A DNA stretch of 7,046 nt from a virus (IMGVR_UViG_2619619133_000005:1-7046); one strand, 5' to 3'. Positions 1 to 7,046 are shown, counted from the stretch's first letter. Made by a program: numbers and translations. Notes: generated from the letters alone by a model not told the origin.

Positions 1-537
1 ATGGAACCCCTTCGTGAAATAAGAAATCGGCTGCTTAACGGCTGGCAATTATCAAAAATGCATACTTTTGAAGTGGCTGCCAGGCATCAGTCCTTCGCCC
101 TGGCGGCAGAGGAATTGTCGCTGAGCCCCAGTGCGGTAAGTCACCGTATCAATCAGCTGGAAGAAGAATTGGGCATTCAGTTGTTTGTTCGTTCCCATCG
201 CAAAGTGGAATTAACGCACGAGGGGAAACGTGTTTATTGGGCGCTAAAATCGTCGCTGGATACCCTGAACCAGGAAATTCTTGATATCAAAAATCAGGAG
301 TTATCGGGAACGTTAACTCTGTATTCCCGGCCCTCTATCGCCCAATGCTGGTTGGTGCCCGCATTAGGTGACTTTACACGCCGGTATCTAACAGTAAAAG
401 CCGCCGGGGTATGGGCGGGGGGCATTGAAACACCTTCGGTGGAAACTCCATCGGAAGGCTCTAAATTTTTTGGTTTTGACATGGATAACGAATTCATCAG
501 TGGTTTTGATGTAGGGGCATGGGGAGTATTACTCTGA
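1..537 (+). pseudogene. dsdC: LysR-family transcriptional regulator, N-terminal fragment (DsdC-like D-serine deaminase activator), fused to phage-derived sequence
   Basis: The ORF begins at nt 1 and carries a typical LysR HTH (…HTFEVAARHQSFALAAEELSLSPSAVSHRINQLEEELGIQLFVRSHRKVELT…) plus the start of an effector domain (…LTLYSRPSIAQCWLVPALGDFTRRY). It is only 178 aa against roughly 300 for a LysR protein, and the last ~50 codons (LTVKAAGVWAGG…) do not look LysR-like. The junction is therefore near nt ~380. The dsdC name rests on my recollection of the protein and on its position near a P4-type integrase; it is unverified. Confidence 0.6.
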
Positions 538-1265
538 TGGCGAAAAATGACTTTAAAGCGTTTGCAACTGATCGAAATGCCAATGTTATGTCGCAGGAGG
601 AATGGGAAGCGTTGCCTGCGCTTATATCCGGATTTACAGCAGGGAAAGCATCCAGTGCGCAAGTCAATAAGGTTATTCGGCAGGCCAGCTTTATTGCTGC
701 AGCTCTGGCCCAGTTTGTAAGTGATAAAACGCAACGGGATGTGCTTGATAATGGTGATCTGCCCGGTTTTGTTGAATTGCTGGGATCGGGGTTTGCTGTT
801 GAATACCTGAGCCGCAAGAATCCGTTTGGTGATATCAAATCGGATGGCACGGTGAAAACAGCTCTCGAAAACCTTGGTTTGGGAGAAGCGGCAACGAGGA
901 ACGTCGGAACGGATACCGGGCAAGTACCAGATATGAGTAGTTTTACAACGGGGCACTCTGGAGCAGCAGACTGGCCGATTCCTAAATCTGGATGGAGTAA
1001 GGGGCCGGATGGGGTAATTACACAATGGGGTATTTTCGGTTTCCCCGTTGGACAGACAGGGACGAATGTTGTTTTCCCGCTACCTTTCCCCGCGCGGGTC
1101 GAATCAATTACACTGACAATGGCAGATATCCAGGAGTCTCTGCTTTCTCCAGCAACCATGCCTGCTTATGGAGTTAACTCAACTGGTACTTCAAGAACGG
1201 GTTTTACAGCCCGTATGTCAGGCGCCGGTGGGTTTAATCTTTGCTATATAGCGAAAGGGAGATAA
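519..1265 (+). CDS. Phage tail fibre protein, C-terminal portion (short constant region plus variable cassette A)
   Basis: 248-aa ORF whose frame is open from nt 510. It contains the left crossover site inside the codons for ALENLGLGE. Its stop (1263-1265) is followed 4 nt later by a tail-fibre-assembly gene with a GGGAGA ribosome-binding site. No further fibre N-terminus or other structural genes lie upstream. Confidence 0.6.
862..887. repeat. Left 26-bp crossover site for a Pin/Gin/Hin-family invertase (gix/hix/pix-like)
   Basis: CTCTCGAAAACC-TT-GGTTTGGGAGAA has the 12-2-12 architecture and AAACC/GGTTT half-site cores typical of gix/hix sites. Its inner half is a perfect inverted repeat of the inner half of the right site at 2740-2765. 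Confidence 0.6.
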
Positions 1266-1269
1266 CAGA

Positions 1270-1713
1270 ATGAATAAAGTTAAAAGTGTTTACAGCCCGT
1301 CCGAAAATGCAATCTACAACGCAGCGCTATATGAAAGTTATATCAAGGAGGGGACATGGCCGCAGGATGGTATTGAAATCAGCGATGAGGATGCTGTCAG
1401 ATTTAATGGGGGAAATAAGCCAACAGGAAAAATGCTGGGAATGGTTTCAGGGACCCTTGCATGGGTTGATGAGCCGCCGCTTTCACCAGAACAGAAAATA
1501 TCAGATGCAGAAAACATGAAAGCCACATTTCGTGCAAAAGCTGACAGTGAAATATCCTGGCGTCAGGATGCTGTTGATGCTGGTATCGCAACTGATGAAG
1601 AAACTTCAACTCTCACCCAATGGAAGAAATACCGTGTGCTGCTGATGCGTGTTGATACGTCAACAGCACCCGATATTGAATGGCCTACGCCTCCGGCAGC
1701 TCAGGCCAGATGA
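1270..1713 (+). CDS. Tail fibre assembly (chaperone) protein, cognate to cassette A
   Basis: 147 aa, ATG 4 nt after the fibre stop codon, with a GGGAGA ribosome-binding site. The C-terminus (…DTSTAPDIEWPTPP…) is of the type seen in Tfa/Mu U/P2 G chaperones. Confidence 0.7.
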   Translation: MNKVKSVYSPSENAIYNAALYESYIKEGTWPQDGIEISDEDAVRFNGGNKPTGKMLGMVSGTLAWVDEPPLSPEQKISDAENMKATFRAKADSEISWRQDAVDAGIATDEETSTLTQWKKYRVLLMRVDTSTAPDIEWPTPPAAQAR

Positions 1714-2287
1714 CATCAGGCGCGGTGCTGGTATCTGTTGCCGTCACCGCGTCAATGTAATCCAGCACGACGTTAAGTCGGGTTGTTTCTGCCTGCGTCA
1801 GTTTCCGCCCGGCCTGTAATTTCAGCTGAATCAGACTAATGGAAGCCATTGCTGCATCAATCAGTGACTGGCGCTGTGCTTCTGCCGCGTCTACTGCGGC
1901 ACTGTGTTGTGCCTCAGTGTCTGTCACCCATTTCTCACCATCCCATTTATCGTATGGCGTTAACGGGGCGATAGTGGTTGTATTTTCGGGGTAATCACCC
2001 GGAGTTGTGATTTCTTTGGCGTCTCCCGTTTCGGTGTTATAGACGATTTCACCGCGATGGTCTGGCACATATTCCCATGAGTTTAAATCTGCCGAACGGC
2101 AGATTGCATAACCAGCCTTATGTATACCAGGTTCATCCAGACAGGAATATGCCGGGATACCAACACCAACGGCAAGATATTCATTTGAAGTGGAAATATA
2201 TTCCCGAGTTTCACCATCATAGCTATAGACGGTAATATTCCCCGCCTTCGTGGCAATAAGCTCGCTATTTAATACAGCGTTATCCAT
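1685..2287 (-). CDS. Tail fibre assembly (chaperone) protein, cognate to cassette B
   Basis: 200 aa on the minus strand with the same C-terminal motif (…DTSTAPDVIWPELPEA). Its ATG overlaps the stop of the upstream cassette-B ORF by 1 nt (TAATG), suggesting translational coupling. Its 3' end overlaps the converging tfa gene by 29 nt. Confidence 0.7.
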   Translation of the reverse strand: MDNAVLNSELIATKAGNITVYSYDGETREYISTSNEYLAVGVGIPAYSCLDEPGIHKAGYAICRSADLNSWEYVPDHRGEIVYNTETGDAKEITTPGDYPENTTTIAPLTPYDKWDGEKWVTDTEAQHSAAVDAAEAQRQSLIDAAMASISLIQLKLQAGRKLTQAETTRLNVVLDYIDAVTATDTSTAPDVIWPELPEA

Positions 2288-2793
2288 TATGCAGCCCTCA
2301 CGATAAAGTTAAATGCAATATTTCGCGCACGTGTTTCCGTTGATGTTCTGGCAACACGTGATGCATCAAAATAATAATTCGCCTGTTTATATGTACCACC
2401 TGTCGCAATTGATGCGAGATTTGGTGTCAATGTTGAAGAGGTAAATGCGCCGACAGTATTATTATTTGGCCCCGTGGTCATATCCAAAAAGCTACCTGTA
2501 ATATTTTGCAGCGTATCGCTCTGAGCACTCAATAACGCTCGCCCACTGTCCACTCCACGCCCATCATCCCAGCCACGAATAAACTCACCACGTAAATCAG
2601 GCAATTTATTTGTCGGGTAAGCCTTTGCCAGCTCCGGGTATTCTTCAGCAGAAAAAGCTGCACCATTGCATTTCAACCAGCCTGTCGGTGGTGTAGCTGA
2701 AGGCCACGGAACAGGCACACCAACCGGTAATGCAGAGCCTTCTCCCAAACCAACGTTTATGAAAATGCAGAAATAACGATCAAATGGCATCAT
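2287..2793 (-). CDS. Alternative tail-fibre C-terminal variable cassette B (silent in this orientation)
   Basis: The minus-strand ORF encodes …INVGLGEGSALPVGVPVPWPSATPPTGW…NIAFNFIVRAA, a typical fibre distal-tip sequence. The GLGE codons coincide with the right crossover site, so genuine coding is about 2290-2753. The leading MMPFDRYFCIF… is read-through of sequence outside the segment and has no convincing start signal. Confidence 0.55.
   Translation of the reverse strand: MMPFDRYFCIFINVGLGEGSALPVGVPVPWPSATPPTGWLKCNGAAFSAEEYPELAKAYPTNKLPDLRGEFIRGWDDGRGVDSGRALLSAQSDTLQNITGSFLDMTTGPNNNTVGAFTSSTLTPNLASIATGGTYKQANYYFDASRVARTSTETRARNIAFNFIVRAA
2740..2765. repeat. Right 26-bp crossover site for the invertase
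   Basis: TTCTCCCAAACC-AA-CGTTTATGAAAA. Its reverse complement shares 19 of the 20 inner positions with the left site. It sits about 55 bp upstream of the invertase start codon. Confidence 0.6.
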
Positions 2794-2819
2794 TCCTGCT
2801 TTTGTCAGGGAGATCTACC

Positions 2820-3374
2820 ATGCTTATTGGCTATGTACGTGTGTCAACAAATGACCAGAACACAGATCTACAACGTAATGCGCTGAACTGTGCAGGATGC
2901 GAGCTTATTTTTGAAGACAAGATAAGCGGTACAAAGTCCGAAAGGCCGGGACTGAAAAAACTGCTCAGGACATTATCGGCAGGTGACACTCTGGTCGTCT
3001 GGAAGCTGGATCGGCTGGGGCGTAGTATGCGGCATCTTGTCGTGCTGGTGGAGGAGTTGCGCGAACGAGGCATCAACTTTCGTAGTCTGACGGATTCAAT
3101 TGATACCAGCACACCAATGGGACGCTTTTTCTTTCATGTGATGGGTGCCCTGGCTGAAATGGAGCGTGAACTGATTGTTGAACGAACAAAAGTTGGACTG
3201 GAAGCTGCTCGCGCACAGGGACGAATTGGTGGACGTCGCCCCAAACTTACACCAGAACAATGGGAGCAGGCCGGACGATTAATTGCAGCAGGAATTCCTC
3301 GCCAGAAGGTAGCGATCATCTATGATATTGGTGTATCGACTTTGTATAAGAGGTTTCCAGCCAGGATTATATAA
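2820..3374 (+). CDS. pin: Site-specific DNA invertase, serine recombinase of the Pin/Gin/Hin/Cin family
   Basis: 184 aa starting MLIGYVRVSTNDQNTDLQRNAL…, carrying the catalytic Ser of the resolvase/invertase N-terminal domain and a C-terminal HTH (…GIPRQKVAIIYDIGVSTLYKRFP). A GGGAG ribosome-binding site lies 7 nt upstream of the ATG at 2820. The ORF-track start at 2784 is an artefactual 12-codon extension. Confidence 0.9.
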   Translation: MLIGYVRVSTNDQNTDLQRNALNCAGCELIFEDKISGTKSERPGLKKLLRTLSAGDTLVVWKLDRLGRSMRHLVVLVEELRERGINFRSLTDSIDTSTPMGRFFFHVMGALAEMERELIVERTKVGLEAARAQGRIGGRRPKLTPEQWEQAGRLIAAGIPRQKVAIIYDIGVSTLYKRFPARII

Positions 3375-3411
3375 AACCGCAGACACGCCGTATGCAAGAC
3401 GTGCTGCGGTT
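3375..3411. terminator. Candidate stem-loop terminator between the convergent pin and cargo genes
   Basis: An imperfect ~12-bp stem (AACCGCAGACACG … CGTGCTGCGGTT) starts 1 nt after the pin stop codon. The minus-strand side is followed by a U-rich run (UUUAUAUAAU); the plus-strand side is only weakly U-rich. Confidence 0.3.
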
Positions 3412-3570
3412 GGCTGATGCACTTTCGAGAGTGTATGTATTGAATTATTTCCAGCCGTTACTGATTTTACGTATTTTTTGTATGAGAGGAGTTGCACCAC
3501 CTCTTAAGCATAATTTGTTAGAATCATGGCAGCACAATAGCCATATATCCAATATAAAATACTTAACCTT

Positions 3571-4470
3571 CTAATCATTATGGAGTATTTGATCGCCGTA
3601 TGGCCAGCCATTTTCCCCAGGAAGGGTCATACCTAACATTGGCATAATACTAAGTTGTCCAATGGTAAATCCTAGAGCACTTGTATTACTGATTCCGGCA
3701 TAGGTCATATCAAGGGGGTTAGACTCTGAGCTGGACATAAAAAGATTTCTTGTGCCAATTCTATTCGCCATTGAGAACTGAATATGCCCACCAATTGTAT
3801 TTACGGTGTCCTGAGATATCCAGTTGTTTAACGCGATAAATGGCGCCCGCCACCAGTTAAGCGTGCCATTCTCAAAACGCCCCCTCGTCATCTCAATATC
3901 TTCCCGAAACTGCTGCTTTCTGTCTCCCAAGACTACCGGGGTACCTGTTGTCAGGTCAAGGCAGTCCTCAATTACAAGATTAGTGGGGTTTGATGGGGTG
4001 TTGTAGATCTTAATGATTTTATGTACCTGTGTTCTGAAACAGAATCCGTAAATAATCATCTCCGTTGCTACAGAACGGGGAAAAAACTGGCCAATATCCA
4101 GTATAAATTTTTCCGCGATTCCCTTTGTTAAAACTGCAATTTCATAAAGACTCGGGTAACTATCATAAGTCAACTCCGGCTGCTGAACATCATAATAATT
4201 AACTTCATGTAATGAAGATAATGATACGGCAAGTAACTCCTTCACATTTATACCGATCATTGTTCCTCCTGCAAAGCCGAAACCAAACTCCATAATTTTT
4301 TCCGGAGATAGACGGTATATGTCATTGGAGCGAATAACTGATACCGGAATCGAGAATAGTTTAGGACAGTGATTTGTCATTACACTTTCATGCTGGGTGA
4401 TTCTTGAGTCGCTTACGGCCCAGATACTTTCCCCTTCTTCCCTGTTTAGCCAGCAGGCTATTGCTGTCAT
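3571..4470 (-). CDS. Hypothetical cargo protein, 299 aa, with possible N-terminal-nucleophile (HslV/proteasome-beta-like) hydrolase motifs
   Basis: The start is set at the internal Met (MTAIACWLN…) because a GGGGG ribosome-binding site lies 6 nt upstream; the ORF-track start at 4608 is a 46-codon extension. Motifs seen by eye against my recollection of HslV: Thr directly after Met, AVSDSRIT (HslV IAGDGQAT), SVM…K with Asp-to-Lys spacing of 16, GFAGGT (identical to HslV), and TTGTPVV (HslV ITGNGDVV). The protein has large insertions relative to HslV. Confidence 0.6.
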   Translation of the reverse strand: MTAIACWLNREEGESIWAVSDSRITQHESVMTNHCPKLFSIPVSVIRSNDIYRLSPEKIMEFGFGFAGGTMIGINVKELLAVSLSSLHEVNYYDVQQPELTYDSYPSLYEIAVLTKGIAEKFILDIGQFFPRSVATEMIIYGFCFRTQVHKIIKIYNTPSNPTNLVIEDCLDLTTGTPVVLGDRKQQFREDIEMTRGRFENGTLNWWRAPFIALNNWISQDTVNTIGGHIQFSMANRIGTRNLFMSSSESNPLDMTYAGISNTSALGFTIGQLSIMPMLGMTLPGENGWPYGDQILHND

Positions 4471-4871
4471 TGAAAACCCCCTTTTAAGTAAAAAAATCAG
4501 ATTCAGATAGTGCATACATAATTTAGTCAAGTCATCTCTTTTAAGACGCATTGAGAAATGGTTGCTCAAGGTGCGCCAGTGAACGCGCACGAAAATAACT
4601 TCTTGCATTTCCCATTACACTCTGACTTTAGGGCCGCGTTAGATTTTAACATGGTGGCCGTGCATCCATTTAAATTGGTAATCTGGAGAATGAGTAACGC
4701 TGAATAGATTAACAATCTATGCGACTAACGGCCCTTAAAAGCGCAGCTCATAACATCGAATTTTACCAGTTTAGTCATTTTTAAAAAGTGCCCGAAAAAT
4801 GTTGTCCACGATTTGTGCTCTACGTCCCATCTTGACCTACTCCCTGATAATTCACTCAGAAGGCGGTTAGC

Positions 4872-4901
4872 AATGTCCGTTAAGTGCTCACAACGGACAT
4901 T
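4872..4901. promoter_or_regulatory. Perfect 10-bp inverted repeat with 10-nt spacer (AATGTCCGTT-N10-AACGGACATT) in the long intergenic region
   Basis: Seen directly in the sequence. It has no U-tract on either strand, so it is not a canonical intrinsic terminator. It may be a protein-binding palindrome or an RNA stem. Confidence 0.25.
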
Positions 4902-4951
4902 CAGCCCACTAAATCCGACCGTGTCGCTCAATATGCGGACAGGTTGTAGTG

Positions 4952-5554
4952 CTAACTGCATTGTAGCTGTGAGATTTCACCATCGATGGCTTCTATAACC
5001 TGTTTATAGCGGAGCATGACCTCATCATGAATCATCATTAATCCGCGGCCGTACTCTGTGGCTAGGATTGTGTATCTTTTCAGGTGTGCAAGATGTTCTT
5101 TGTTGCCAGTAATGTCACTTGCAACCTGCGTGGAGTCCAGCCGTTCGATAAGCGCATTATTGCCGCGATAGGAATCAATTAGGCTTCTTGCGCTTGTATA
5201 AAAAGCCACAATTTTTGAGAGTGTTTCTCTATGAACTTCAGGTAGGGATGCCGAGTTGGCTTCATAGAACGTGAAGTAGTTTTGAGTAATGGGGAAAATG
5301 TTATCGAACGGTGAGTTCCGGTCGTATTTTTCGATTTCTTCTGCCATTCTGGCCTGATACAGTTTAATCAGTGAGTCTATTTCCTCTCTGACACCCAATA
5401 GCGTTGTTATACGCTTCTCTCTGGCCGCTGTTGCCTGCTGTTTTGCCTGCTGTTTCACCTGAGTTGTCACTCCTATCATCGTGAAACAGCCACCTAAAAG
5501 AGCTGCTAAAAATGCGGAGATGAGATCTGAATATTCGTGCCAGAAGGTTAGCAT
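4952..5554 (-). CDS. Hypothetical cargo protein, 200 aa, with one N-terminal transmembrane helix and a helical, charged soluble domain
   Basis: The ORF has a hydrophobic N-terminal segment (DLISAFLAALLGGCFTMIGVTT), then a Q/K-rich linker and a helical-looking domain. It sits on the same strand as, and upstream of, the HslV-like gene. The ribosome-binding site is weak (GGAA). Confidence 0.55.
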   Translation of the reverse strand: MLTFWHEYSDLISAFLAALLGGCFTMIGVTTQVKQQAKQQATAAREKRITTLLGVREEIDSLIKLYQARMAEEIEKYDRNSPFDNIFPITQNYFTFYEANSASLPEVHRETLSKIVAFYTSARSLIDSYRGNNALIERLDSTQVASDITGNKEHLAHLKRYTILATEYGRGLMMIHDEVMLRYKQVIEAIDGEISQLQCS

Positions 5555-5570
5555 GGCGAAAATTCCATTG

Positions 5571-5593
5571 GGTTAAATTATGTCTATTTAACC
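5571..5593. promoter_or_regulatory. Operator-like palindrome (GGTTAAAT-N7-ATTTAACC) 17-40 bp upstream of the membrane-protein gene start
   Basis: A perfect 8-bp inverted repeat seen directly, overlapped by a second partial palindrome (AATTATGT/ACATAATg). Its position suits a repressor-binding site in the promoter region of the cargo gene. Confidence 0.25.
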
Positions 5594-5888
5594 ACATAAT
5601 GATACGAAGATACCTTCCAAAATGTTGCTATGACCCCATCTGTTGTTGCCTGGCTGGTGACGTGTCTGGGTATTAGCACCGTGCTCTCTCATTATCTAAG
5701 TCTGGGCCAATCCTCGTTCATAACAGGCATTCACTTCAGTCATGGCAGAAAGGTATGCATGCTGGAGAAGTCATGAAAGAAAAGAAGACTTCTGCCTCGT
5801 TTGTCATCACTGTTATCTTCTCATTGATTATGCAGGTCATAGTGGGGACACACAAAGCTTTGTACTATCCGATAGTGGTTAAGGTGGA

Positions 5889-7046
5889 TCACTCCCCCTT
5901 TTCATCAAGCCAATCCGCCCACCACTGCATCATTTCTCTGCGCTTATCGAGATACTGAGCATGGTTGTAAATACCGCGCACAGATCCGCCGTTGGCATGT
6001 GCCAGTTGCACTTCAATAGCGTCAGCAGGCCATTCGTGCTCGTTCATAATCGTGCTGAATTCATGCCTGAATCCGTGACCGCTTTCCAGACCCTCATAGC
6101 CGATTTGTTTGATCACAAGTAGCACCGCGTTCTCGCAAATTGGCTTCTTCTTATCGTTGCGCCCGGAAAAAACAAACTCTGATACTGGTTTAGTGATTGA
6201 GCTTAGTGTAGTGAGAAGTTCAACCACCTGGTCTGACATCGGGACCACATGAATTTTGCGTCCCTTCATTACACTGGCGTCGATGGTGATAATCCTGTTT
6301 TCAAAATCGACGTTCTTCCATAGCATGGAGCGAAGCTCTTTCGTTCTTAGGGCTGTGTAGCGCAAAACTTTAGTCGCAATGAGCGATACGATACTTCCTG
6401 AAAATGTTGCCAGTGCTTTATTGAATGCCGGGATCTGGTCTGCAGGAAGAAACGGGAAGTTTTTCTTGCGGTATCCCTTCATGGCGTCAGCAAGGTCAGG
6501 TGCCGGGTTATATTTAGCCCTACCAGTGACAATAGCGTAACGGAAAACCTCGCCGCATCTTCTGCGGGCTTTATTTGCTCGCTCCATTGCACCGCGATCT
6601 TCAAATCTGCGGATTACTTCCAGCAGTTGCATCGGCTCAATCTCCTGAATTTCAAGGCCGCCGATGATAGGTAAAATGTCGTCATCAAACATTTTTGCAA
6701 GTTCAGTCGCATACCCTACTGACCATACTTGCTTCTTGTGCTCGTACCATTCCTTGTAAATCGCACTAAATGAATTGTTGTTAGACGAAGCCTTTTTCGC
6801 CTTTACCGGATCGATGCCAACCGAGATGTCTTTCCTCGCAGTCCATGCCTTATCCCTTGCTTCCTGCAAAGTCATAAGCGGATATTTTCCGACGGTCAGG
6901 ATTTTCTCCTTACCGTCAATCTTGTAGCGAAGCTGCCATACCTTTTTCCCGGATACAGGAACATAAAGGTACAGGCCATTACCATCGAGAAGGCGGTATG
7001 GTTTTTCTTTCGGCTTTGCTGCTTCAATCTGCTTAACGGTGAGCAT
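5889..7046 (-). CDS. intS: Phage integrase, tyrosine recombinase of the P4 type
   Basis: 385-aa ORF starting with the ATG at the window edge. The N-terminus (MLTVKQIEAAKPKEKPYRLLDGNGLYLYVPVSGKKVWQLRYK…) is P4-like, and the C-terminal catalytic region has …GHGFRHEFST… and …RGIYNHAQY (His-x-x-Arg and Tyr nucleophile). The intS name is inferred from length and from proximity to dsdC as at the E. coli argW prophage site; it is unverified. Upstream signals lie outside the window. Confidence 0.85.
   Translation of the reverse strand: MLTVKQIEAAKPKEKPYRLLDGNGLYLYVPVSGKKVWQLRYKIDGKEKILTVGKYPLMTLQEARDKAWTARKDISVGIDPVKAKKASSNNNSFSAIYKEWYEHKKQVWSVGYATELAKMFDDDILPIIGGLEIQEIEPMQLLEVIRRFEDRGAMERANKARRRCGEVFRYAIVTGRAKYNPAPDLADAMKGYRKKNFPFLPADQIPAFNKALATFSGSIVSLIATKVLRYTALRTKELRSMLWKNVDFENRIITIDASVMKGRKIHVVPMSDQVVELLTTLSSITKPVSEFVFSGRNDKKKPICENAVLLVIKQIGYEGLESGHGFRHEFSTIMNEHEWPADAIEVQLAHANGGSVRGIYNHAQYLDKRREMMQWWADWLDEKGE

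Follow-up and report, generated by a model that had tools for sequence, protein, structure and literature searches.

The argW-dsdC island and its described variants

Hypervariability and prophage decay are established features of the argW-dsdC island of Escherichia coli (PMC4366372, PMC9659370). Here, we analysed a viral DNA stretch of 7,046 nucleotides (IMGVR_UViG_2619619133_000005:1-7046; the whole stretch is called the window below), which begins with a chimeric open reading frame (ORF) joining the 5' part of dsdC, the gene of the D-serine regulator DsdC, to the 3' end of a phage DUF2612 gene. We found that this ORF is very probably a dsdC pseudogene produced by a single microhomology-mediated illegitimate deletion, and that its breakpoint recurs in other strains. 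We propose tentatively, at a little under an even chance, that nt 386–389 of dsdC form a previously undescribed site-specific deletion hot spot, which would be the host-side anchor of recurrent prophage-purging deletions. The kind of event is known, namely collateral loss of host genes in argW prophage decay; what is new is this allele and the sharply recurrent breakpoint in dsdC.

The regulator closest to the window allele is DsdC of K-12 (NF007491 / TIGR02036), which has the same start codon, the same divergent position and an identical control region; the window allele differs in that its effector/oligomerisation domain is missing and it scores below both equivalog cut-offs. Replacement of dsdCX by csc genes at argW was reportedly described by Moritz and Welch in 2006. 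Enterohaemorrhagic E. coli (EHEC) O157:H7 and most E. coli positive for the locus of enterocyte effacement (LEE) have lost dsdCX, and the csc sucrose locus stands in its place at the argW hot spot (Connolly et al. 2015, PMC4366372). The island and the predicted outcome, loss of D-serine tolerance with the regulator, are the same as for the window strain, which instead keeps dsdX and dsdA, has no csc genes, and carries an N-terminal DsdC fragment left by a prophage-anchored deletion.

KplE1 (CPS-53) of K-12 and decaying CUS-3-like prophages (PMC9659370) likewise have an IntS-type integrase at argW and torI/attR beside dsdC, and undergo progressive prophage loss. In these elements dsdC stays intact, whereas the window deletion crosses attR into dsdC and keeps the integrase-proximal rather than the torI-proximal end. 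Aberrant prophage excision of the lambda gal/bio type has one endpoint in flanking host DNA and the other in the prophage, and deletions anchored at replication arrest (Ter) sites have been described with one fixed end, variable partners, and short homologies. Host and prophage endpoints, short homology, and one fixed end are thus shared with the breakpoint reported here; however, no arrest, Chi, or gyrase site was identified at dsdC nt 386–389, and the reciprocal dsdC fragment (nt 389–936) is absent from phage records, whose matches begin at the attP core. A further comparison concerns the Din-family inversion systems (Mu Gin/G, P1 Cin/C, e14 Pin/P), which have the same serine invertase beside a 1.9-kb segment, 20-nt inverted crossover sites, and a swap of two fibre C-termini with their assembly genes. 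The window segment differs in that it sits in a 6.7-kb remnant without a virion, with its fibre gene downstream of the dsdC promoter.

A truncated dsdC fused in frame to a phage baseplate gene

The chimeric ORF and its parts are the following.

1–537, + strand: chimeric ORF dsdC'-'DUF2612, 178 amino acids (aa), a very probable dsdC pseudogene (ORF call, protein matches, AlphaFold2)
1–388, + strand: 5' 41% of dsdC, codons 1–129, encoding the winged helix-turn-helix (HTH), the linker helix, and the first ~30 effector-domain residues (K-12 identity)
383–388, no strand: deletion junction, a 6-bp microhomology GGTATC common to dsdC and the phage DUF2612 gene (three-way alignment, parent flanks)
389–537, + strand: last 49 codons and stop of the phage DUF2612 / baseplate-wedge gene in its native frame (protein identity, PHROG 587)

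The window opens with the ATG of this ORF, and nt 1–388 are 100% identical to dsdC of K-12 MG1655, C600, ATCC 8739, and many further strains. Together with its position divergent from dsdX-dsdA, this identifies as dsdC the gene that an earlier note, made from the sequence alone, had called a truncated dsdC-like LysR regulator. From nt 383 onward the best matches, at 98% identity, are a DUF2612 / baseplate wedge 1 family gene, over its 3' end, and the gp53-like tail-fibre gene behind it (OkiPb01676, OkiPb01690), and the three-way alignment places the switch from dsdC to phage within the hexamer GGTATC at 383–388. Translation of both parents showed that the chimera consists of DsdC residues 1–129 (ending DFTRRY) and, identical and in the native frame, residues 178–226 of a 226-aa DUF2612 protein (WP_000049943-type). 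The roughly 50 codons that the earlier note had described as unrelated to the regulator are this 49-residue C-terminus of a phage baseplate protein. The stop codon of the ORF (TGA, 535–537) is the natural stop of the DUF2612 gene and overlaps the tail-fibre ATG at 537 (ATGA).

Profile searches agree with this composition. Pfam HTH_1 matches chimera residues 18–76 at 79.3 bits (cut-off 26.6), while LysR_substrate is matched over profile positions 2–35 of 209 only, at 18 bits and below its 28-bit cut-off. The chimera fails both NCBIfam DsdC equivalogs, with 250.5 bits against a cut-off of 316 for NF007491 and 247.6 against 352.4 for TIGR02036, and covers positions 3–134 of 313 only; intact DsdC of strain E308 reaches 598 and 601 bits with the same profiles. 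Full-length DsdC proteins have 303–312 aa, and the chimera holds residues 1–129 of 311. It has the N-terminal HTH and the position divergent from dsdX-dsdA that mark a DsdC, and neither a complete effector domain nor equivalog-level scores. On the phage side, structural protein family PHROG 587 matches chimera residues 128–170, as against 1–218 in the intact DUF2612 protein, and with only the last 49 of ~226 residues the chimera is no full-length DUF2612 member.

Structural data delimit the retained part in the same way. LysR-type regulators in the PDB align to the chimera from residue 17 to about 132–140 and no further. In an AlphaFold2 model built with 28 DsdC homologues, residues 11–100 (winged HTH and long linker helix) are confident; the predicted local distance difference test score (pLDDT) is 88–94 over blocks 21–80, which hold the HTH, and below 50 over residues 118–178. 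The claim that the HTH was kept and the effector domain cut early is borne out, as the DNA-binding domain (DBD), the linker helix, and ~30 effector residues remain. A full-length LysR homologue naturally ending near residue 178, or colinearity of the whole ORF with an intact regulator, had been named as what would speak against a truncation; alignment to full-length dsdC revealed colinearity to residue 129 only, and no natural homologue of ~178 aa was found.

How the deletion arose

In E308 the undeleted order is dsdXA, intact dsdC (311 aa), torI, a ~42-kb prophage, DUF2612, tail fibre, tfa, intS, and argW, and the interval missing from the window amounts to 41,285 bp in E308 coordinates. Complete prophages sharing the integrase-proximal arm of the window (invertible fibre, pin, cargo genes, intS) were found in GPT24-02 and NADC1036. 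In the source contig of the window the 16-nt attachment (att) core ATGGTGTCCCCTGCAG lies at argW; in K-12 and E308 it is found at attR, 95 nt beyond dsdC. Both attR and the excisionase gene torI belong to the deleted interval, since the source contig runs from dsdC nt 388 straight into DUF2612. The earlier note had suggested a deletion that removed the prophage end and the 3' part of the regulator together. The intact arrangement in E308 confirms that regulator and prophage DNA went together, while the extent was larger than an end: about 90% of the prophage is gone, from the attR/torI side through the baseplate genes.

Inspection of the joint revealed no att core, insertion sequence (IS) element, or Pin crossover site. 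For this reason we regard the event as neither integration nor excision but as a RecA-independent, microhomology-type deletion from the prophage interior across attR/torI into dsdC. By comparison, the ancestor carried dsdA-dsdX, divergent dsdC, attR-torI, a ~42-kb prophage (lambdoid early region, contractile-tail baseplate), DUF2612, the invertible fibre, pin, two cargo genes, intS, and attL/argW. One deletion of ~41 kb then fused dsdC nt 388 to DUF2612 codon 178 at the shared GGTATC. With it went the 3' 59% of dsdC, attR, the excisionase, all replication, lysis, and head genes, and most tail genes, leaving a 6.7-kb prophage remnant. By chance the joint keeps the frame of the phage gene, so that translation from the dsdC start runs to the DUF2612 stop. 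Because attR and the excisionase are gone, the remnant should no longer be able to excise.

Two points weigh against this account. The size of the deletion is an estimate, as E308, GPT24-02, and OkiPb01676 are 97–98% identical in the phage DNA near the junction and differ in cargo. The deleted DNA could also in principle have moved instead of being lost; 20.5 kb of the 127-kb contig were examined.

A recurrent breakpoint at dsdC nt 386–389

A search with the chimera in a large public protein collection yielded 23 E. coli clusters of aberrant DsdC proteins. Thirteen of them follow DsdC as far as residue 129/130 and end in unrelated tails; the remaining ten break at residues 97, 101, 110, 114, 122, 132 (a frameshift), 167, 181, 192, and 206. 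DNA was fetched for 12 of the 13 clusters, and every one is colinear with K-12 dsdC to nt 386, 387, 388, or 389 before different DNA follows (12/12). These junctions lie at locus position ~6386–6389 in loci L010–L018, L020, and L021, with L015 at ~3622. Their left flanks fall into three haplotype groups. The partners are DUF2612 in the window, the DUF2824, gp7, gp20, and gp16 genes of P22-like prophages at six positions, the 3' end of psu of a P4-like satellite (opposite strand), an HK97-like portal gene, a lambdoid N/cI region, and two more sites.

At the junctions for which a parental phage sequence was available, the microhomology amounts to 6, 2, 4, 5, and 2 nt and in each case includes nt 386; the reading GGTACC, with T387 seemingly lost, was seen at three junctions. 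In an unbiased sample of 100 metagenome contigs picked by the dsdC anchor nt 335–362 alone, we found one more break at the same place (L086, nt 387) with a new partner. In complete genomes, nt 239–388 are kept in 2,728 and nt 389–538 in 2,705, and from these two counts about 23 complete genomes are broken near the site. The junctions of P0005 and P0004 were absent from complete E. coli genomes.

Judged from these junctions, 14 or more deletions that arose independently and reach into different argW-resident elements have their left end at dsdC nt 386–389 in common. Common descent does not account for the recurrence, because the right-hand sequences are unrelated. By the same comparison, at least five kinds of argW-resident elements would have served as partners, and about 1% of dsdC-bearing E. 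coli would be affected. Prophage decay at argW thus removes the same piece of a host regulator repeatedly, and the recurrent breakpoint suggests that a well-studied E. coli locus harbours a sequence-specific cause of genome instability. No published report of such a hot spot in dsdC was found in the literature searched.

The site itself is a quasi-palindrome, CGGTA(T)CCG, which in the K-12-type allele reads GCCGGTA/T/C/C, CCGGTATCC. In the B2-type allele (CFT073, L022), the substitution G384A lies exactly at the hot spot, giving CCGATATCC instead of CCGGTATCC. We saw no hot-spot chimera with the B2-type allele, a comparison confounded by the presence of ipuA/ipuB between dsdC and argW in B2 strains.

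Other breaks in dsdC were seen alongside these. The metagenome contigs, from the gut, include one with nt 816 joined directly to the argW att core (L027), one with a large break at nt 533 (L032), and one with an IS1 insertion at 635 (L110). A 233-aa protein (P0117), seen in one run, is a fusion of DsdC residues 1–97 to a YfdC-like protein (Form_Nir_trans), which implies a deletion that took argW and everything between dsdC and yfdC.

What may fix one end of the deletions

We consider that some site-specific property of the DNA may fix one end of these deletions while 2–6 nt of microhomology pick the other, the candidates for the fixed element being a DNA end, a nick, or a replication arrest. 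Stated for the site, a DNA end, nick, or arrest would be made at CGGTA(T)CCG and then joined by microhomology of 2–6 nt, for which the chances appear slightly short of equal. Possible causes include topoisomerase/gyrase cleavage, an HUH/relaxase-type or repetitive extragenic palindrome (REP)-like nick, and a pause of a polymerase or of RNA polymerase. One end held within 4 nt while the other varies, and microhomology blocks of 2, 2, 4, 5, and 6 nt that all overlap nt 386, argue for such a mechanism. The spread of endpoints over 386–389, the three GGTACC junctions, and G384A in the B2 allele are likewise consistent with it. The site also fits the G-10/Y-1/G+1 pattern of elemental transcription pauses, although by chance this pattern occurs at about 1 per 32 positions.

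Against such a mechanism stands the finding that no known Ter, Chi, att core, arm repeat, Pin site, or IS end lies at nt 386–389, nor was a predicted hairpin or a responsible enzyme identified; the support is purely comparative. Several specific candidates were set aside. Resection limited by RecBCD and Chi was rejected: the window has a single Chi, at 3044, and near dsdC nt 388 there is none, only a non-canonical GCTGGTTGGTG at 347–357, 31 nt away. Hairpin-induced polymerase stalling was rejected, since single-strand folding of either strand was no better than that of shuffled sequence. IS-mediated deletion fails because all 12 hot-spot junctions inspected at the DNA level are free of IS sequence, and the one IS1 insertion seen in dsdC is at nt 635. 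Pin-mediated deletion at a pseudo-crossover site fails because the dsdC site is unlike the AAACC-NN-GGTTT core. A check by eye against the consensus sequences of Ter, the DnaA box, IHF, the MOB-P nic (YATCCTG), the R388 nic, R64 sfx, REP, and gyrase gave partial matches only and no cut at 386–389, which we do not count as evidence. If a defined enzyme or arrest event does make the fixed end, this locus would offer a natural and tractable system for studying the grounding of prophages and the collateral loss of host genes.

It is unlikely that the IntS-type integrase of the argW elements cuts a cryptic site in dsdC together with pseudo-sites inside the prophage. Every partner element resides at argW, the window remnant keeps intS and attL, and around a central TAT the partner sites show brief identity, a feature of secondary att sites. 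Yet the dsdC site resembles neither the att core ATGGTGTCCCCTGCAG nor the arm-type repeats TTTTACCC, on which ground a secondary att site was rejected; the right-hand flanks of the partners have no common motif, and a reaction in which neither side is a bona fide att site would be unusual for arm-dependent integrases.

Selection for a DsdC(1–129) product, for instance a useful DNA-binding fragment, would make the window chimera a functional protein, and we judge this very improbable. The DNA-binding domain and linker helix are kept and confidently modelled, several fusions including that of the window are in the frame of the partner gene, and DsdC binds globally and independently of D-serine in neonatal meningitis E. 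coli (NMEC) (PMC9659370). However, a 4-nt window would not plausibly be enforced on a protein with unrelated tails, some of them out-of-frame or antisense read-through (P0002, P0006). An excess of in-frame fusions is also expected from the protein collection, which clusters short-tailed variants into the full-length cluster, and each allele is rare (1–13 contigs).

Random illegitimate recombination, with nothing special about nt 386–389, is harder still to credit. A single junction with 6 bp of microhomology does resemble any spontaneous deletion, and structure prediction gives neither a hairpin nor any other notable fold there; but chance would have to place 12/12 DNA loci and one metagenome contig at the same 4 nt with partners all different and three flank haplotypes, besides the 13 of 23 aberrant clusters at residue 129/130 and the ~23 complete genomes that keep 239–388 and not 389–538. 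Finally, there is next to no prospect that the ORF is an intact, naturally short LysR regulator, an assembly chimera, or the product of phage insertion into dsdC, even though the source annotation reads 'lysR family protein': no family of ~178-aa DsdC homologues exists to which it could belong and no LysR-type regulator is colinear with it past residue ~132 (DsdC itself past 129), the junction is present in 13 contigs from different projects and assemblers, and on its phage side the joint falls within a baseplate gene, while the true att site, still at argW beside intS, is 6.7 kb away and the remnant is followed by no dsdC 3' part.

Predicted consequences for the D-serine response

The product of the chimeric ORF would lack ~83% of the effector/oligomerisation domain and would be expected neither to sense D-serine nor to form the activating tetramer. 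Upstream of the chimera, dsdX (445 aa) and dsdA (442 aa) lie on the opposite strand, followed by emrYK and evgAS. The earlier note had asked whether dsdX and dsdA are intact; they are, and neither of the two proteins differs from its K-12 counterpart, nor does the 217-bp control region between dsdX and dsdC. Because the effector/oligomerisation domain is lost, dsdXA is predicted to be non-inducible despite the intact operon. The strain should then be unable to use D-serine and should be inhibited by it in minimal medium.

The footprint of DsdC covers 47 bp in the dsdC-dsdX intergenic region (PMC9659370, PMC4366372). The retained winged HTH and linker helix may dimerise and occupy this site in the unchanged control region. 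Such residual dimeric binding to the operator is plausible because comparable fragments of LysR-type regulators, consisting of the DBD plus linker, are stable enough to crystallise (BenM 3m1e/4ihs/4iht, CbnR 5xxp, CysB 5z4y, MetR 5fo5). If bound to the operator, the fragment may exert autorepression at most.

Two considerations tell against these predictions. In the model, the disordered 60-residue tail may bring rapid proteolysis and leave a simple null allele. A second copy of dsdCXA elsewhere in the genome is also conceivable, and such a copy occurs in some K1/B2 strains; the flank here is K-12-like.

On the phage side of the joint, no terminator-like site was found on the + strand from the dsdC start to nt 1883, so the dsdC promoter probably reads into the orphan tail-fibre genes. 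The orphan tail-fibre operon is probably now under the dsdC promoter, with its native translational coupling through ATGA.

Occurrence of the allele

The window is an exact substring of JNMH01000013.1 (E. coli 3-373-03_S3_C3), and beyond its end the tRNA-Arg(CCT) gene argW follows at 162 nt, then yfdC. The same 178-aa protein is present on 13 contigs, from two NCBI assemblies (3-373-03_S3_C3) and several independent SRA/ENA runs. These results indicate that the junction is real and inherited, as 13 contigs from several projects carry it, some with the invertible segment in one orientation and some in the other. The dsdC-DUF2612 junction was found in 0/5,426 complete E. coli genomes and in none of the GTDB species representatives. 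The chimeric allele is a rare, lineage-specific pseudogene and by itself ordinary gene decay. The 5' part of dsdC is present in 2,733/5,426 complete E. coli genomes (only about half), in keeping with the frequent dsdCX replacement already on record.

D-serine tolerance goes with niche (urinary tract versus gut) and shows an anticorrelation with LEE carriage. For genotype-phenotype studies it is therefore important that dsdC pseudogenes are recognised as such, and screens of dsdCXA carriage by presence or absence may or may not call the chimeric allele, depending on the coverage threshold.

Genes of the prophage remnant and the invertible tail-fibre segment

The rest of the window contains the following features.

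537–1265, + strand: tail-fibre gene, constant N-terminal part to ~873, then variable C-terminal part A (gp53-like) (Pfam Gp53-like_C, annotated homologues)
869–888, no strand: left crossover site AAACCTTGGTTTGGGAGAAG (inverted repeat I1, 95% complementary)
2739–2758, no strand: right crossover site of the invertible segment (20-nt inverted repeat)
874–2753, no strand: invertible 1.88-kb tail-fibre segment, with end A and its assembly gene on the + strand and end B and its assembly gene on the - strand (inversion in L003/L005)
1270–1713, + strand: tail-fibre assembly protein A (Pfam Caudo_TAP)
1685–2287, - strand: tail-fibre assembly protein B, tfaE-like (Pfam Caudo_TAP, NADC1036 annotation)
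2287–2793, - strand: alternative tail-fibre C-terminal part B (Collar), promoterless in the window orientation (Pfam Collar)
2820–3374, + strand: Pin-type serine DNA invertase, pinE-like (Resolvase 172.8 bits, HTH_7 54.9 bits; pinE in NADC1036)
3571–4608, - strand: hypothetical cargo gene with no family match, called as a 299-aa version by RefSeq in NADC1036 (Pfam, PADLOC, PHROG, and NCBIfam searches)
4952–5554, - strand: hypothetical cargo gene, 200 aa, no family match (weak ZorB/MotB-like N-terminus only)
5889–7046, - strand: intS, P4-type tyrosine integrase, adjoining argW past the window end (Pfam Arm-DNA-bind_3, Phage_int_M, Phage_integrase; att core)

The segment 874–2753 is exactly inverted in L003/L005 relative to the window and L004, with the same deletion junction and 2 single-nucleotide polymorphisms elsewhere, and in L003 part B is joined to the constant fibre part. 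A small serine recombinase with resolvase and HTH domains, inverted crossover sites, and the presence of both orientations place the system in the Din family. As both orientations occur within the deletion lineage, the Pin-type invertase acted after the prophage had been reduced to the 6.7-kb remnant. Of the features of an IntS-type argW prophage, the remnant has the integrase domains, tRNA-Arg(CCT), and the att core, while attR and torI are missing.

Searches of Pfam, PHROGs, PADLOC, and NCBIfam returned nothing for the two cargo ORFs besides the weak ZorB/MotB-like N-terminus. The 2.5-kb cargo block (window 3377–5866) is found at 99% identity in other chromosomes and on the 111-kb plasmid NZ_CP130669.1, and by this recurrence it behaves as a portable module. 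NADC1036 (L006 20001–26237) is 99.9% identical to window 810–7046, which corresponds to the integrase-proximal 6.2 kb of a complete argW prophage. Upstream of the fibre constant region, NADC1036 has a YmfQ / Mu-like baseplate and an HK97-like head instead of DUF2612, and the exchange point lies near window nt 810, inside the fibre gene.

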